DNA from: a virus
Lineage: Duplodnaviria; Caudoviricetes
Length of the DNA: 64,000 nt
Virus record (IMG/VR): IMGVR_UViG_2974521131_000001
Coordinates: 1-64,000 of that record
Direction: 5' to 3' (one strand)
Below are positions 55,933-62,050 of this stretch, one piece after another (within the stretch, counting starts at the first letter, position 1; each line of letters starts with the position of its first letter). The notes beneath the pieces are model-generated. The model saw nothing but the letters and a program-made list of their open reading frames with translations, had not been told where the DNA came from and did not search any database. The translations under genes were made by a program, and so were the position numbers.

Positions 55933-56259
55933 TTGCCAACCAGTAGCAAAAATGGCCCACGTTCACGAGGCCGAACTGGTGGGAAGTATGAACGGGCGAA
56001 GTGGCGCGTACTGAAGGCAAATCAGATCTGCGCCCACCCCGACTGTCGCAAGCTCATCGACCTGGACCTGAAGTGGCCGGATCCCATGAGCCCCACCGTA
56101 AACCACATCATCCCCGTCAAGGAACTGGCCTGGGATGATCCACTCACGTACGACGTGGCCAATCTCGAGCCGATGCACCTGGTGTGCAACCAGCGACTCG
56201 GTGCTGGGCCGCGTAAGAAGAAGCCGAAGCACATGAAGTCCCGCAACTGGCGGGAGTAG
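55933..56259 (+). CDS. HNH endonuclease (packaging-associated type)
   Basis: ICAHPDC...IDLDL...TVNHIIP...NLEPMHLVCN. Confidence 0.85.
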   Translation: MPTSSKNGPRSRGRTGGKYERAKWRVLKANQICAHPDCRKLIDLDLKWPDPMSPTVNHIIPVKELAWDDPLTYDVANLEPMHLVCNQRLGAGPRKKKPKHMKSRNWRE

Positions 56260-56266
56260 GAGCAGC

Positions 56267-56512
56267 ATGAACCCGAGCATCGGACGCATCGTCCACTACC
56301 ACTCGTACGGCACACCAGGGGGCGAGTACCTATCGGAGGCCCGCGCCGCGATCATCACGGCGGTCTACGAGGATGGTCACGAGCTGGCCGACCCGTCGAA
56401 AGTCCATGTGGGACTGGCGGTTCTGAATCCGACGGGCATGTTCTTCAACCAGCTGGTCCCGTTCGCCGAGGAGCCGACGCCGGGGCACTGGAGCTGGCCA
56501 CCACGGGTCTGA
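56267..56512 (+). CDS. Conserved phage hypothetical protein
   Basis: PSIGRIVHY...AAIIT.V...L.VLNP.G..F...W.WPPRV. Confidence 0.75.
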   Translation: MNPSIGRIVHYHSYGTPGGEYLSEARAAIITAVYEDGHELADPSKVHVGLAVLNPTGMFFNQLVPFAEEPTPGHWSWPPRV

Positions 56513-56594
56513 GCAAACCCGTGTTACACTAGAAGTAGGCGTAAGCGCACACGAATGGTGTTGCGCAGCAAACATCATTCAGGTTAGGAATCAC

Positions 56595-56804
56595 ATGGCA
56601 TCCCCCGAGAATCCATTCGTGCCACTCGACCCATCGGACTACAACCTGTCGGGGTCGGCGGCTGCTGAGGCTGCCCTGGCTGGCATTTACAAGCCGCTCG
56701 TCGGCGCTGGCCCGCATCCCGACCTGACCCTGGCCGAGTTGAATCAGCGATTCGACGGCACCGGCACTGCACCTGCACACACGTTCCCGACGCCACAGAA
56801 CTGA
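56595..56804 (+). CDS. Hypothetical protein
   Basis: AGGA RBS; followed by terminator. Confidence 0.7.
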   Translation: MASPENPFVPLDPSDYNLSGSAAAEAALAGIYKPLVGAGPHPDLTLAELNQRFDGTGTAPAHTFPTPQN

Positions 56805-56827
56805 TGTTCTGAGGTCATAGGCCCTCG

Positions 56828-56870
56828 AAGAGGCCCTCGGTCAGCGAATGTGCTGGTCGGGGGCCTCTTT
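56828..56870 (+). terminator. Intrinsic terminator before RNA island
   Basis: AAGAGGCCC...GGGCCTCTTT long hairpin. Confidence 0.7.
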
Positions 56871-56876
56871 GGTTCT

Positions 56877-56907
56877 CCTGTAATCACCTTGGATCCCCGT
56901 CTAATCT
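56877..56907 (+). promoter_or_regulatory. CCTGTAATCA-class promoter for the tRNA/tmRNA island
   Basis: CC-TGTAAT, 17 nt, TAATCT. Confidence 0.7.
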
Positions 56908-57087
56908 TGTTCTTGTCCGGTTCAAGAGGGACCGGAACGAAGCGGTACAGAACGGGGATCCCTTCCCAAATCCCATGTCTTTCAGGGGATTCCCACTGAC
57001 TTCAGGGCATGAAGCACCCAGTTGTCAACCCGACTACCGGGCGCGGTAGTCAACCGACCATCGGGAGATGTCACCCGGTGGTCACCT

Positions 57088-57159
57088 ATGGGCGTGGCTT
57101 GATAGGAAAGCAGCGGTCTCCAAAGCCGCCACACGCAGGTTCGAATCCTGCCGCCCGTG
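57088..57159 (+). tRNA. tRNA-Trp(CCA)
   Basis: ATGGGCG/CGCCCGT acceptor, CTCCAAA loop, TTCGAAT T loop, G73. Confidence 0.85.
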
Positions 57160-57239
57160 CGTTCGTTCGGTCACGACCGAACACCGAACACCTGAATCTT
57201 GATAACTACATAGCGATTATGTTTCAAATGTTTTTCAAT

Positions 57240-57615
57240 GGGGCTGTACTGGTTTCGATTGCGAACCGAGTCCATGGAAGCGTGCCGGGAAGATACGCCC
57301 GTAACAGTTCAACCTTATAAGCGCTGCTTTTGTCGCTGCTGATTACGCCGTAGGTGCGTGATCCGGTGGGGTTCAGAGTTTTACCCGTTTTCTGAACTAT
57401 CCCACCGTCATTCAAACGGGGAACCCTCGCAGGAATTGAGCTGATACGTCGCAAGAGGCTAAATAGCGGAAGTCACCAGCAGAGTCGGAATGGAGACCGG
57501 CAACTGAGCGTGTCGGGCGTCCCACCCCGATGCGACGGAGCGAGTGGGACTACGCACGTAGAAGAATGAGTACAGAGAACGTAAGACGCGGGTTCGATTC
57601 CCGCCAGCTCCACCA
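57240..57615 (+). ncRNA. ssrA: tmRNA; tag (A)AAFVAADYAVGA
   Basis: GGGGCTG...CAGCTCC-A-CCA with G3:U70; T arm; ATAAGC then tag ORF 57323-57361. Confidence 0.95.
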
Positions 57616-57736
57616 GGCCTGGTCGCAGGTTCGAATCCTGCTGCGAGAGTGACGAATACATGGTCTGCAGCCATGTACGAGTTCCCGACGGTTCGCTACC
57701 GACGTGTTCGTATAGCTCAGTGGTTAGAGCAGGGCC
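57616..57736 (+). ncRNA. Circularly permuted tRNA-like element A
   Basis: 3' half (57616-57649) precedes 5' half (57706-57736); acceptor 6/7 and anticodon stem 5/5 complementary. Confidence 0.65.
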
Positions 57737-57912
57737 GATAGACCGGTTTCCTACCTCCGTTCAAAGGGTAGGTGGTGGGATCTGGACCCTAGGCAGTCCC
57801 GATCAGTCCCCGCGAGGACAATGCGTTATAACCCCGTAGCGGTCGACGGTGAGCCGCTGGAGTGGCGACCGATTTGCCTGGCGTTCCCGACCGCCGTCAT
57901 CCGTCGGGATAT

Positions 57913-57985
57913 TGGCCTGTAGCTTAATTGGTAGAGCAGCGAGCTGTTAACTCGCCAGGTGAAGGTTCGAATCCTTCCTAGCCAG
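57913..57985 (+). tRNA. tRNA-Asn(GTT)
   Basis: Canonical D, anticodon and T arms; two acceptor mismatches; G73. Confidence 0.85.
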
Positions 57986-57989
57986 CATT

Positions 57990-58063
57990 GCGGGAGGTCG
58001 CCGGTTCGAATCCGGCCACGGGTCAGATAGCACCCGTGTAGCTCAGTCTGGTAGAGCGCCCGC
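57990..58063 (+). ncRNA. Circularly permuted tRNA-like element B
   Basis: GCGGG-AGGTC-T arm-CACGGGT-8-nt loop-ACCCGTG-TA-D arm-G-CCCGC; all stems Watson-Crick. Confidence 0.8.
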
Positions 58064-58470
58064 GCCAACTTTGGGGCATGGCCCATAAGTCGGGGAGACC
58101 CGGCGAAGGGGGAGAGTGACATCTCCTCGCCCGCAAGGGTTCCCCATGCAATGTCGCTGCAGTGAAGATCGTTTACGGCGGTCTTCGAGATGCGAGCTAC
58201 ACCTAGGTGTCCAGGGCCGTGAACCGGTGGGACGCACCATGCCGTACGTGCGGCTGAAAGGGTTATCGAGCGAGTGTGGGTATGCAGGACAAGGTGGAAG
58301 AACAGTCTGAGGCTTGGCAGCCAAGGGCGGTCACCATGATCGTTTGTGAACTGGTCGACGGGTCAGGGAATACGGGAGAATGCGATGTACCTCGCCAGGG
58401 TGAAGCATCTGAGGTGTGAAGCATTCTGTGCCCCAAAAGGGTTCGGAACTTCATGGGGAAGCACATCTCA
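58064..58470 (+). ncRNA. Large structured non-coding RNA domain (GOLLD-like candidate)
   Basis: No credible ORF; terminal multibranch domain GAGGTGTG...CACATCTC enclosing two stems. Confidence 0.45.
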
Positions 58471-58474
58471 CGTC

Positions 58475-58547
58475 AAACATTTAGCTCAGCAGTAGAGCAT
58501 CTCTTTGGAATAGAGACGGCGGCGGTGCGATTCCGCCAATGTAACCA
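58475..58547 (+). tRNA. Atypical tRNA, anticodon GGA (Ser) without long variable arm
   Basis: TCTCT-TTGGAAT-AGAGA; T loop TGCGATT; 5-bp acceptor; encoded CCA. Confidence 0.55.
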
Positions 58548-58840
58548 AGCAAAAGTTCTTCCCCTGCCGAGAAGCAAAAGCGCCTTAATCCCCGACTGTG
58601 GAGCAGAATCGGGGCCGTCACGAGCCCGCAAGGCGACGGCGGTTTGTAGGCAAGTAGTGCAGCCATGGGACGGCCATCCTAACGGCGAAGCGAAAGTCGC
58701 AGAGTAGCTTTCGGTATGACGAGTGGTTCACGTACGAACCAGGCGTTGCACGTACTCGGGGGACCGAGTGGACAAGTCGGGAATCCATAATCCGACGAAA
58801 GCGTGTGGTCGTGGCGGTTTAGTCTCTAGCCCGCCCAACA
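58548..58840 (+). ncRNA. Structured intergenic RNA of unknown class
   Basis: Several hairpins (CCCCGA/TCGGGG, GCGA-AAG-TCGC, GNRA-like loops); no credible ORF. Confidence 0.35.
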
Positions 58841-58842
58841 AA

Positions 58843-58914
58843 CGGAATGTGCAGCCTAATGGTAAGGCGGGGAGTTCGCGACTCCCGATCCAGGTTCGAG
58901 TCCTGGCGCTCCGG
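58843..58914 (+). tRNA. Atypical tRNA, anticodon CGC (Ala) on a Pro-like body
   Basis: GGGAG-TTCGCGA-CTCCC; C1-G72; no G3:U70; 2-nt acceptor bulge. Confidence 0.55.
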
Positions 58915-59003
58915 CGCTACCCTGTGTGTGCCAGATGCACCCCCGCTGAAAACACAACTATTTCAGGTTGTTTGTTTGCCGGAAACAGCGGGCAGGGTTT
59001 CAA

Positions 59004-59082
59004 TCTCGTCGCGAATTGGCGATCACAGCTGGCTGTAAACTAGCTCCTTCGGGTGTGCAGGTTCGACTCCTGACGGCGAGAC
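59004..59082 (+). tRNA. tRNA-Tyr(GTA), atypical D arm
   Basis: AGCTGG-CTGTAAA-CTAGCT; CC-TTCG-GG variable arm; TCTCGTCG/CGGCGAGA acceptor. Confidence 0.7.
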
Positions 59083-59196
59083 GTAGCGGTGGTGCAACAC
59101 CGCAGGGCGAGGCTGGACGGACCCGCGCACGACACAAGGGCCAGCAGACCCTCGGCTAGTGGAGAGGTGAGCCGACCGAATTGCCTTTCCAGCTAA

Positions 59197-59267
59197 TCCA
59201 GGTTGGTGTAATGGCAGCATGGCAGAATCTGACTCTGCCGATTGAGGTTCGATTCCTTGCCCTGGAT
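59197..59267 (+). tRNA. tRNA-Gln(CTG)
   Basis: GCAGA-ATCTGAC-TCTGC; T1-A72. Confidence 0.8.
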
Positions 59268-59358
59268 CGAGCAGGTAGATGATAATGGCGTAACCGGTGC
59301 TAATGCTGCACTCGCTGAGGATCCTCGGCGCTACCGATCAAAGGTTATACGTCCCAAT

Positions 59359-59434: not shown

Positions 59435-59471
59435 TCGGGTTGTCGGTAAACACGGGTGTGGAACCGTCATT

Positions 59472-59554
59472 GGAAGGATCCGCTGAATGGTCGGCAACCG
59501 GCGTCGAATACCGGGGCTGGTGCAAGCCAGGGGGTTCGATTCCTCATCCTTCCG
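59472..59554 (+). tRNA. tRNA-Ser(CGA)
   Basis: GGAAGGA/TCCTTCC, G73, long variable arm. Confidence 0.85.
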
Positions 59555-59558
59555 CAAT

Positions 59559-59642
59559 GGAGAATGGAGCCCACCAGGTGGTGGGGACCGATTGCTAATC
59601 GGCTCGCAGCCCCGCTGTGTGGATCGTGCCCACTCTTCTCCG
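59559..59642 (+). tRNA. tRNA-Ser(GCT), non-canonical T loop
   Basis: TTGCTAA loop, long variable arm, T loop ATCGTGC, G73. Confidence 0.7.
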
Positions 59643-59643
59643 C

Positions 59644-59763
59644 GTGAACGCATACAAGTGCAGTGCATGTAAGCGCCCTGTCGGTCTGATGGTCGACGCG
59701 AAGGGCGAGCCCGAGATCTTCAAGTGCCCGAATACCGGGCGTGTGGCCACGGCCACGAAGTAG
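59644..59763 (+). CDS. 39-aa zinc-ribbon-like peptide in tRNA array
   Basis: MNAYKCSACKRPVG...FKCPNTG; high GC3; no RBS. Confidence 0.6.
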   Translation: MNAYKCSACKRPVGLMVDAKGEPEIFKCPNTGRVATATK

Positions 59764-59832
59764 TTCCTAGGATGCGCCGTCGAGCTTCAAAATGCTCGTA
59801 TAGCCGAGGCGCAGAAGAGTATCGGCTCCAAT

Positions 59833-60119: not shown

Positions 60120-60199
60120 CGACGTATCAGGTTCTGCAAGGGGTAGGTAAAAGGGTCCACGCCCCAGTGGTCCGTCCTGGTACACAACGAAAGGCAAGT

Positions 60200-60400
60200 A
60201 TGACCGCGAAGCTTCGCACTGGTATCGCCCACATCGACATCGTCCGCACGGTGAACGATCTGATCGACCAGGTCGAGGAACTGAAGGAGTTCTGTTACGC
60301 GGTGGCTGACGAGCCCGCTGAGGCCCCGAAGAAGGCCACGGCACGCAAGGCCCCGGCCAAGAAGGCTGAGGACGCCAGCGAGGCTGACAAGGGGGAGTAA
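60200..60400 (+). CDS. Hypothetical protein with Lys/Ala-rich tail in tRNA array
   Basis: AAGG RBS; very high GC3. Confidence 0.75.
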   Translation: MTAKLRTGIAHIDIVRTVNDLIDQVEELKEFCYAVADEPAEAPKKATARKAPAKKAEDASEADKGE

Positions 60401-60408
60401 TCCCCATT

Positions 60409-60743: not shown

Positions 60744-60755
60744 CTAGGAGAGACT

Positions 60756-61007
60756 GTGGGAGCACAACTCTCAGCAGCCGAAGCCGCGAGGATGCGAGCT
60801 GCACTCGACTGGGTGGAGAACCACCCGGTCAGCAAGGACCGCCACGTGCAGCTGGTGGCGGCACTCGTTGACGAGATGCGTCTAGCTGAAGACACTTCGG
60901 ACCTGCGTCCGTGGTTCAACCGGCTGATTCAGATCAACGACGAACTTGATAGAACTCACGGTCGGATTCCCACGGTGGATGACTGGCCGGGAGATATGGA
61001 TCTGTAG
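60756..61007 (+). CDS. Hypothetical protein in tRNA array; 3' end overlaps tRNA-Leu(TAG)
   Basis: AGGAG RBS, GTG start. Confidence 0.7.
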   Translation: MGAQLSAAEAARMRAALDWVENHPVSKDRHVQLVAALVDEMRLAEDTSDLRPWFNRLIQINDELDRTHGRIPTVDDWPGDMDL

Positions 61008-61340: not shown

Positions 61341-61407
61341 GCGGCAGTTCCGGAAAGTGCTGGGCGTCCTAAGCCCGAGCAAGGGTGTTCGAGTCACCTC
61401 TGTCGCA
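61341..61407 (+). tRNA. tRNA-Arg(CCT) with truncated D arm
   Basis: GCGGCAG/CTGTCGC; TGGGC-GTCCTAA-GCCCG; only 13 nt between acceptor and anticodon stems. Confidence 0.6.
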
Positions 61408-61773: not shown

Positions 61774-61852
61774 TGCCCTGTTCGTCTAACGGCAGGATTC
61801 CTGGGAGTTGGTCCCAGGGGATGGAGGTATCGAATCCTCCACGGGGCATCCA
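61774..61852 (+). tRNA. tRNA-Gln(TTG), atypical loops
   Basis: CCTGGG-AGTTGGT-CCCAGG (G33); 8-nt T loop; encoded CCA. Confidence 0.65.
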
Positions 61853-61854
61853 AT

Positions 61855-61927
61855 GGGGGTGCATGTTCCTTGGGGGCGACGGATCCTTGCAAGATCTGTG
61901 TGGTGGGTTCAATTCCCATCATCTCCA
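61855..61927 (+). tRNA. tRNA-Ala(TGC)
   Basis: G3:U70, A73, CTTGCAA loop. Confidence 0.88.
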
Positions 61928-62050
61928 CGGCGGGTGCGGGCTGTCAGATAACCAATGCTGGCCCGCACCCGACCCAGTATGCAGATCGTAGTCTGTAAGG
62001 GTACGAAATGCATACTCACACATAATAGGTCGCGTAGGCGACCATTTAAT

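Follow-up and report, generated by a model that had tools for sequence, protein, structure and literature searches.

A GOLLD RNA and two permuted tRNA-like modules in the tRNA array of a cluster M mycobacteriophage

The GOLLD RNA reportedly goes back to the work of Weinberg et al. in 2009. Cryo-EM of the env-38 GOLLD has revealed a cage architecture composed of 5′ and 3′ domains and a disordered, inward-facing linker (PMC12286853), and RNA cages are now known for env-38, as a 14-mer, and for the 3′ domain of a Streptococcus GOLLD (PMC12286853, PMC12990946). A Mycolicibacterium GOLLD with a tRNA in J13/15 has also been described (PMC12990946). In mycobacteria, Morgado and Vicente (2018) found a structured RNA of ~430 nt in about 81% of tRNA arrays, with a prevalence in array groups G1 and G2, the former of which includes the arrays of cluster M phages (PMC5966550). 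As relayed by two other papers (PMC12286853, PMC9569102), the same group named this ~430-nt array RNA GOLLD (Morgado 2020). That tRNA arrays of mycobacteria and of cluster M phages carry GOLLD is already known, and a further sighting adds nothing new in itself. A second system of relevance is YrlA, whose tRNA-like domain is represented in Rfam by RF02553 (Chen et al. 2014; PMC4201824).

The window analyzed here, a 64,000-nt stretch of DNA, is part of a complete virus genome of 83,724 bp (~83.7 kb), and its source is a cluster M (Reyvirus-like) mycobacteriophage. Relatives of the region 57000-59200 are found solely among Mycobacterium phages of the subfamily Mclasvirinae and then M. abscessus prophages; the nearest, sharing 89-90% identity, are Estes, Aziz/GenevaB15 and MrMagoo, all of cluster M, followed by Reindeer, Nanosmite and Bongo/PegLeg, with the M. 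abscessus prophages last. Between 57088 and 62255 on the plus strand, ARAGORN and Rfam identify 21 tRNA genes and one tmRNA gene, for a total of 22. These include the tmRNA at 57240-57615 (+; ARAGORN; Rfam RF00023, 100.8 bits), whose 3′ CCA ends at 57615, and a canonical tRNA-Asn(GTT) at 57913-57986 (+; ARAGORN; Rfam tRNA, 63.4 bits). A gene for an RtcB RNA ligase (63112-64254; 358 bits) follows just downstream of the array. No match to a Ro60/TROVE gene was obtained anywhere in the complete 83,724-bp record, and no convincing promoter or terminator was found inside 56000-59300.

Several other features of such arrays deserve mention. In relatives, HNH endonuclease genes border tRNA arrays of this kind. 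The present array contains large tRNA-free gaps at 59435-59832, 60121-60408, 60745-60997 and 61774-62050, together with a weak tRNA-Sec-type match at 59472-59553 (30 bits versus a cut-off of 47) and orphan T-arm motifs at 61383 and 61903; such gaps may provide room for non-canonical tRNAs or additional small RNAs. The window’s own tmRNA copy encodes its CCA, and the terminal CCA is absent from the tmRNA gene of several relatives, where CTCCAC is followed by TG, GA or TA (fetched loci L001, 858; L002, 886; L010, 909; L011, 1030; L012, 899). Because CCA is not encoded in these genes, the tmRNA must first be cleaved, after which the CCA-adding enzyme extends it.

The interval behind the tmRNA is, we are confident, a mosaic rather than a single RNA, comprised of a permuted tRNA-like module (module 1), a three-hairpin spacer, tRNA-Asn, a second permuted module (module 2), and GOLLD (58067-58835) with a crippled tRNA in its linker. 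GOLLD RNA proper, ~770 nt in length, is located at about 58067-58835 on the plus strand, within the tRNA array. Its 3′ domain (58409-58832, +), the part modeled by Rfam, belongs to the GOLLD family: the RF02032 match scores 182.5 bits versus a gathering cut-off of 150 (E 1e-49) and is not truncated, spanning positions 1-416 of the 416 in the model. Full-length RF02032 matches of 182-216 bits occur likewise in 9 of 9 cluster M loci, in three M. abscessus prophages, and in pCBMA213_1, a Mycolicibacterium plasmid that carries GOLLD. The initial annotation had named a candidate GOLLD-like giant RNA at 57616-58470, to be checked with Infernal and the Rfam GOLLD model. It was right as to the kind of RNA, since the search returned a full-length match above the curated cut-off, but the RNA lies about 450 bases further right: the left 450 nt of that interval are not GOLLD, of GOLLD it takes in no more than the 5′ domain and the initial hairpin of the 3′ domain, and 58471-58835, more than half of GOLLD, falls outside. 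No part of the window reached the gathering cut-off for ROOL, and 57000-59300 had no ROOL match with E up to 1.

Since the Rfam model represents only the 3′ half of GOLLD, the ends of the element were set by comparison with relatives. Over their full length, the 769 nt from 58067 to 58835 can be aligned with 30 phage records at 70-90% identity (blastn), with matches running from query base 1-4, as in all Mclasvirinae phages, through base 766-769, and when the stretch between the tmRNA end and the GOLLD end is aligned, conservation starts at 58067-58070. The flanking genes point to the same limits. Specifically, tRNA-Asn directly precedes the GOLLD start in Bongo, PegLeg and SlimJimmy, and plasmid pCBMA213_1 has the same start 4 nt after a tRNA-Leu, such that GOLLD begins 1-4 nt behind a tRNA in the Bongo group and the plasmid. 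On the other side, tRNA-Ala(cgc) (58843-58915, +; ARAGORN) lies 10 nt past the GOLLD end, and a tRNA of varying identity is found 8-13 nt past that end in 10 of the 11 relatives with annotated or predicted tRNAs, the distance being 81 nt in Reindeer. Flanking tRNAs set the ends of GOLLD in phage, prophage and plasmid copies alike, which makes for a simple, testable processing model with predicted mature ends. A separate search for a Mycobacterium GOLLD in genome contigs, made with a 17-mer from the 5′ start, returned 41 matches in unrelated taxa, none of them Mycobacterium, and these were attributed to chance. A gapped pattern with 15 specified bases of the 3′ domain was searched for in viral contigs and, among the matches listed, hit mostly unrelated ones.

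The 5′ domain (58067-58408, +; 342 nt) is itself a covarying structure. In an alignment of 14 sequences with 66-94% identity, 26 of its 52 predicted pairs exhibit compensatory changes on both sides, 97.4% of cells are paired versus 30-46% in slid controls, and none of 500 shuffles reached this covariation. The domain opens with a four-way junction, in which the stem GCATGG/CCATGC surrounds three hairpins, one of them with a GCAA loop. The initial impression that the interval is dense in stems was accurate insofar as every stem named is present in the sequence, but the density does not go beyond chance, as MFE z-scores against dinucleotide shuffles amount to -0.29 for 57616-57912 and -1.02 for 57987-58408. 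Stems spotted by eye in this G+C-rich DNA carry little weight, and the evidence for structure consists of covariation and covariance models, not of stem density. One such stem-rich segment, a terminal multibranch domain at 58413-58470, is in fact the helix with which the Rfam GOLLD model begins (positions 1-63).

Open reading frames of 40-98 aa occur in all frames across 57616-58470, and none of them is conserved: start, stop or length is not kept among 11 relatives, and all differ in every lineage. The early statement that the interval holds no credible ORF is upheld in this sense, and the small ORFs inside GOLLD were rejected as genes on account of the same lineage-dependent variation. Public annotations place small hypothetical proteins in the GOLLD 5′ domain of Estes, GenevaB15, Reindeer, LilhomieP and PegLeg; these are best read as artefacts. 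Dubious entries include Estes gp105, Reindeer gp95, a second tRNA-Asn in PegLeg, and a tRNA-Leu(aag) in GenevaB15. One annotated tRNA-Leu(aag) overlies the permuted module and one second tRNA-Asn overlies the first GOLLD junction, and ARAGORN and Rfam confirmed neither. Pointing out these hypothetical-protein and tRNA annotations is of practical use (L001, 1321-1437; L002, 1177-1245 and 1490-1618; L004, 1697-1840; L009, 1598-1669 and 1768-1911).

The unpaired linker of the Rfam model, at model positions of about 64-135, corresponds to 58471-58550 and contains a tRNA-like insert. This degenerate tRNA (58475-58546, +; called as Ser(gga) by ARAGORN; Rfam tRNA, 48.8 bits, model 3-68) has two mismatched terminal acceptor pairs, the T loop TGCGATT, and no long variable arm, and what is conserved in it is probably the shape, not a decoding role. 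A tRNA embedded in the linker had been anticipated, with tRNA-Asn cast in that role. The tRNA-Asn is indeed present at 57913-57986, but it is canonical (63 bits) and sits upstream of the GOLLD 5′ end, which it abuts in the Bongo group; the linker tRNA is the degenerate copy. The anticodon of this copy is GGA here and TAG (Leu(tag)) in Estes (L001, 1522-1593), and M. abscessus prophages possess a two-base “anticodon.”

To the left, the spacer that separates tRNA-Asn from the tmRNA measures anywhere from 100 to 404 nt among relatives and contains three hairpins on the plus strand. In hairpin A (57750-57772), CCTACC and GGTAGG pair around an 11-nt loop (57750-57755/57767-57772), and 5 of 6 pairs are changed on both sides among 8 phages. 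Hairpin C (57779-57804) has a 9-pair stem with one constant mismatch, of which three pairs are changed on both sides, and a conserved 8-nt loop (CCTAGGCA here). Finally, hairpin B (57885-57909), located 3 nt before tRNA-Asn, pairs TCCCGAC with GTCGGGA around a conserved loop, and its stem has been swapped in Estes, Reindeer, Bongo and Nanosmite for different sequences that are again complementary, with variants in relatives that include CCCAGTC/GACTGGG and TCGCTC/GAGCGA. The stems of hairpins A and B were among those first picked out by eye, and both are substantiated by these replacements. Other stems from that set (CTAGGCA/TGCCTGG, GTCC/GGAC and GGTCG/CGACC) are not conserved, as one or both arms of each lie in a 68-nt insertion (57813-57880, +) that is private to this phage and appears as a gap in 7 of 8 relatives; the first cannot be conserved because it would pair the conserved loop of hairpin C with the end of the private insertion. 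Nanosmite carries an unrelated insert at the same site, and no second copy of the 68-nt insertion was found in the window or in any fetched locus. None of the three hairpins corresponds to an Rfam family. Two further matches, to wcaG (57707-57786, 28 bits) and sul1 (57856-57913, 27 bits), were below cut-off and judged to be chance. As a group (57750-57909), the hairpins, whose loops are all conserved and whose stems all covary, persist in phages without module 1, namely Estes and MrMagoo.

The remaining parts of the mosaic are the two permuted tRNA-like modules. Module 1 (57616-57736, +), recognized through a permuted-order scan and a six-phage alignment, starts on the base after the tmRNA CCA. 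Its 5′ part consists of an anticodon-stem strand (57616-57620), a T arm (57625-57641) and the acceptor 3′ strand (57642-57648); an insert of 57 nt that contains two hairpins (57657-57677 and 57686-57704) follows, and the 3′ part supplies the acceptor 5′ strand (57706-57712), a D arm (57715-57730) and the other anticodon-stem strand (57732-57736). Among the six phages, the 41 pairs of this module are 91.7% paired and 16 of them are changed on both sides, a degree of covariation reached by none of 500 shuffles, with slid partners at 32-50%. Module 1 is absent in Estes and MrMagoo. Module 2 (57990-58063, +), detected with the Rfam YrlA model and with our own model R1, occupies the space between tRNA-Asn and the GOLLD 5′ end in the order GCGGG, T arm, an acceptor closed by an 8-nt loop (CACGGGT/ACCCGTG), D arm, and CCCGC. 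Relative to Estes, 7 of 7 acceptor pairs differ, with perfect pairing in both phages, and the outer, anticodon-type stem covaries in Reindeer. Module 2 is absent in Bongo, PegLeg, SlimJimmy and Nanosmite. The model for the short-loop permuted module, R1, gives module 2 a score of 80.8 bits, module 2 being a training sequence, and leaves module 1 within the background of ordinary tRNA-tRNA junctions (16-19 bits); module 1 is defined by a hand-made structure and pair counts.

Both modules appear and vanish independently of GOLLD, which is present in all of the module-less phages. Two permuted modules had been noticed in the initial annotation and taken to be domains of one large RNA; they are real, but they are not such domains, given that GOLLD persists without either. 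A permuted module right after the tmRNA 3′ end is common to M. smegmatis cluster M phages and M. abscessus prophage-type contigs, with short-loop versions occupying this post-tmRNA site in the M. abscessus-type contigs, and further copies of the module are found at L010 (908-984), L011 (1029-1102), L017 (6733-6809) and L018 (1169-1245). In most copies, the strand leaving the module is GTTAA, the tRNA-Asn anticodon-loop motif, which suggests descent from tRNA-Asn halves; the window’s two copies have lost it and exhibit GATAGAC and GCCAAC.

Several explanations can be offered for the modules. A tentative one, less likely than not, is that they are YrlA-like, Y RNA-type tRNA mimics that would act via host Ro60/Rsr or tRNA-recognizing enzymes, with module 2 as a functional GOLLD head. 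In Rfam, module 2 is matched best by YrlA (RF02553), with an E value of about 1e-9 across the T arm, closed acceptor and D arm; compensatory changes keep the structure; the M. smegmatis YrlA module has been shown to be cut by RNase P and given CCA in vitro (PMC4201824); and the RtcB gene at 63112-64254 is just past the array. Against this, module 2 scores 43.6 bits versus a gathering cut-off of 69 and aligns only with model positions 23-85, leaving the Ro60-binding helix (model 1-22 and 86-114) unmatched. The locus has no room for that helix, because module 2 is bordered by the 3′ end of tRNA-Asn and by the first stem of GOLLD. Nor does the 83.7-kb genome contain a TROVE gene, and GOLLD does without module 2 in the Bongo group. 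For comparison, YrlA scores elsewhere are at most 18 bits for module 1 and up to 26 bits for tRNA-dimer junctions of the same array. In a bolder proposal, which we regard as a long shot worth stating, both modules would be working parts, not debris: module 2 would form a tRNA-shaped head on the GOLLD cage subunit, module 1 would head a separate ~300-nt hairpin RNA whose 5′ end would be made by tmRNA 3′ processing, and both would offer a grip to the machinery that recognizes tRNAs, for instance RNase P, the CCA-adding enzyme, host Rsr or phage RtcB. If this is true, the GOLLD class would be tied to tRNA processing.

It is rather improbable that the modules are inert debris, in which case deletions in an array prone to recombination would have left behind halves of decayed tRNA genes, probably copies of tRNA-Asn. 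Such an origin would fit the Asn-type GTTAA on the exiting strand in most relatives, the extra T-arm-like debris behind the module of GenevaB15, the phages that do without modules, and the HNH endonuclease genes bordering the arrays. However, all four helices stay paired as their sequences change, with the acceptor differing at 7 of 7 pairs between the window and Estes; the anticodon-type stems covary; 88.7-91.7% of cells in the permuted modules are paired versus 32-50% in slid controls; and M. smegmatis phages and M. abscessus prophages alike retain the position right behind the tmRNA.

Circularly permuted tRNA genes are found in the red alga Cyanidioschyzon, and the modules could by this parallel be permuted genes of working tRNAs, whose ends would be joined by phage RtcB and whose acceptor loop would be opened by RNase P and RNase Z. 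This is very unlikely. RtcB is encoded 5 kb downstream, and a loop with U at position 33 could be closed by a preceding GA and a following GTTA in several relatives, but the window’s copies show GCCAAC and GATAGAC instead, conserved complementary flanks for a bulge-helix-bulge junction were not seen, module 2 is only 3 nt from tRNA-Asn, the acceptor loop of module 1 has its 57-nt insert, and no CCA or discriminator pattern is conserved. Scarcely credible, too, is the original notion of one ornate RNA of ~850 nt at 57616-58470, with tRNA-Asn in a variable linker and the permuted modules as domains, for while its total length is GOLLD-like and its right end coincides with the first GOLLD 3′ helix, the Rfam model continues to 58832, the tmRNA-to-tRNA-Asn spacer ranges over 100-404 nt and is devoid of module 1 in both Estes and MrMagoo, the Bongo group has GOLLD starting right at the end of tRNA-Asn, and it is the tRNA at 58475-58546 that actually occupies the linker.

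For the mosaic, a route from transcript to product can be proposed. The whole array would probably be transcribed as one precursor, and an RNase Z cut after tRNA-Asn, together with an RNase P cut before tRNA-Ala, would release GOLLD. Because module 2 has no free acceptor end, it may stay on the GOLLD 5′ end, or RNase P may nick its loop in a manner likened to that of M. smegmatis YrlA in vitro (PMC4201824). With module 2 attached as a tRNA-shaped head, the released RNA would be about 856 nt (57987-58842). By analogy with env-38 and the Streptococcus GOLLD, the two-domain fold may then give rise to a closed, homo-oligomeric RNA cage in which the linker and its tRNA-like insert point inwards; cage formation by the present copy is an extrapolation from these distant relatives. 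It is tempting to speculate that the role of GOLLD is tied to tRNA supply or translation during lytic growth. Since the phages of M. smegmatis are genetically tractable, they offer a convenient setting in which to address the function of GOLLD and its tRNA-shaped neighbors.

Taken together, the locus can be placed relative to three known RNAs. ROOL shares with GOLLD the character of a large, ornate phage RNA that is found near tRNA arrays and forms cages, and the window differs in having no match to the ROOL covariance model. The modules resemble YrlA in their permuted order of T arm, loop-closed acceptor, D arm, and a stem replacing the anticodon stem; they are unlike YrlA in their lack of a Ro60-binding helix, in the lack of a Ro60 gene in the phage, in a score below cut-off, and in their attachments, one side being joined to the 3′ end of a tmRNA or tRNA and the opposite side to a longer RNA. 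The likeness to GOLLD is much closer and includes the full-length match of the 3′ domain above the RF02032 cut-off within a total of ~770 nt, a linker that carries a tRNA-like insert and follows the first 3′ helix, a 5′ domain that is structured and measures ~340 nt here, compared among 14 relatives, versus a yardstick of roughly 400 nt, and a phage location inside a tRNA array with tRNAs on both sides. Relative to other mycobacterial GOLLDs, nothing sets the window’s copy apart beyond two local details: the permuted module between the upstream tRNA and the GOLLD 5′ end, which is restricted to Rey-type phages and Reindeer, and the degenerate linker tRNA, whose anticodon is unlike that of its closest relative.
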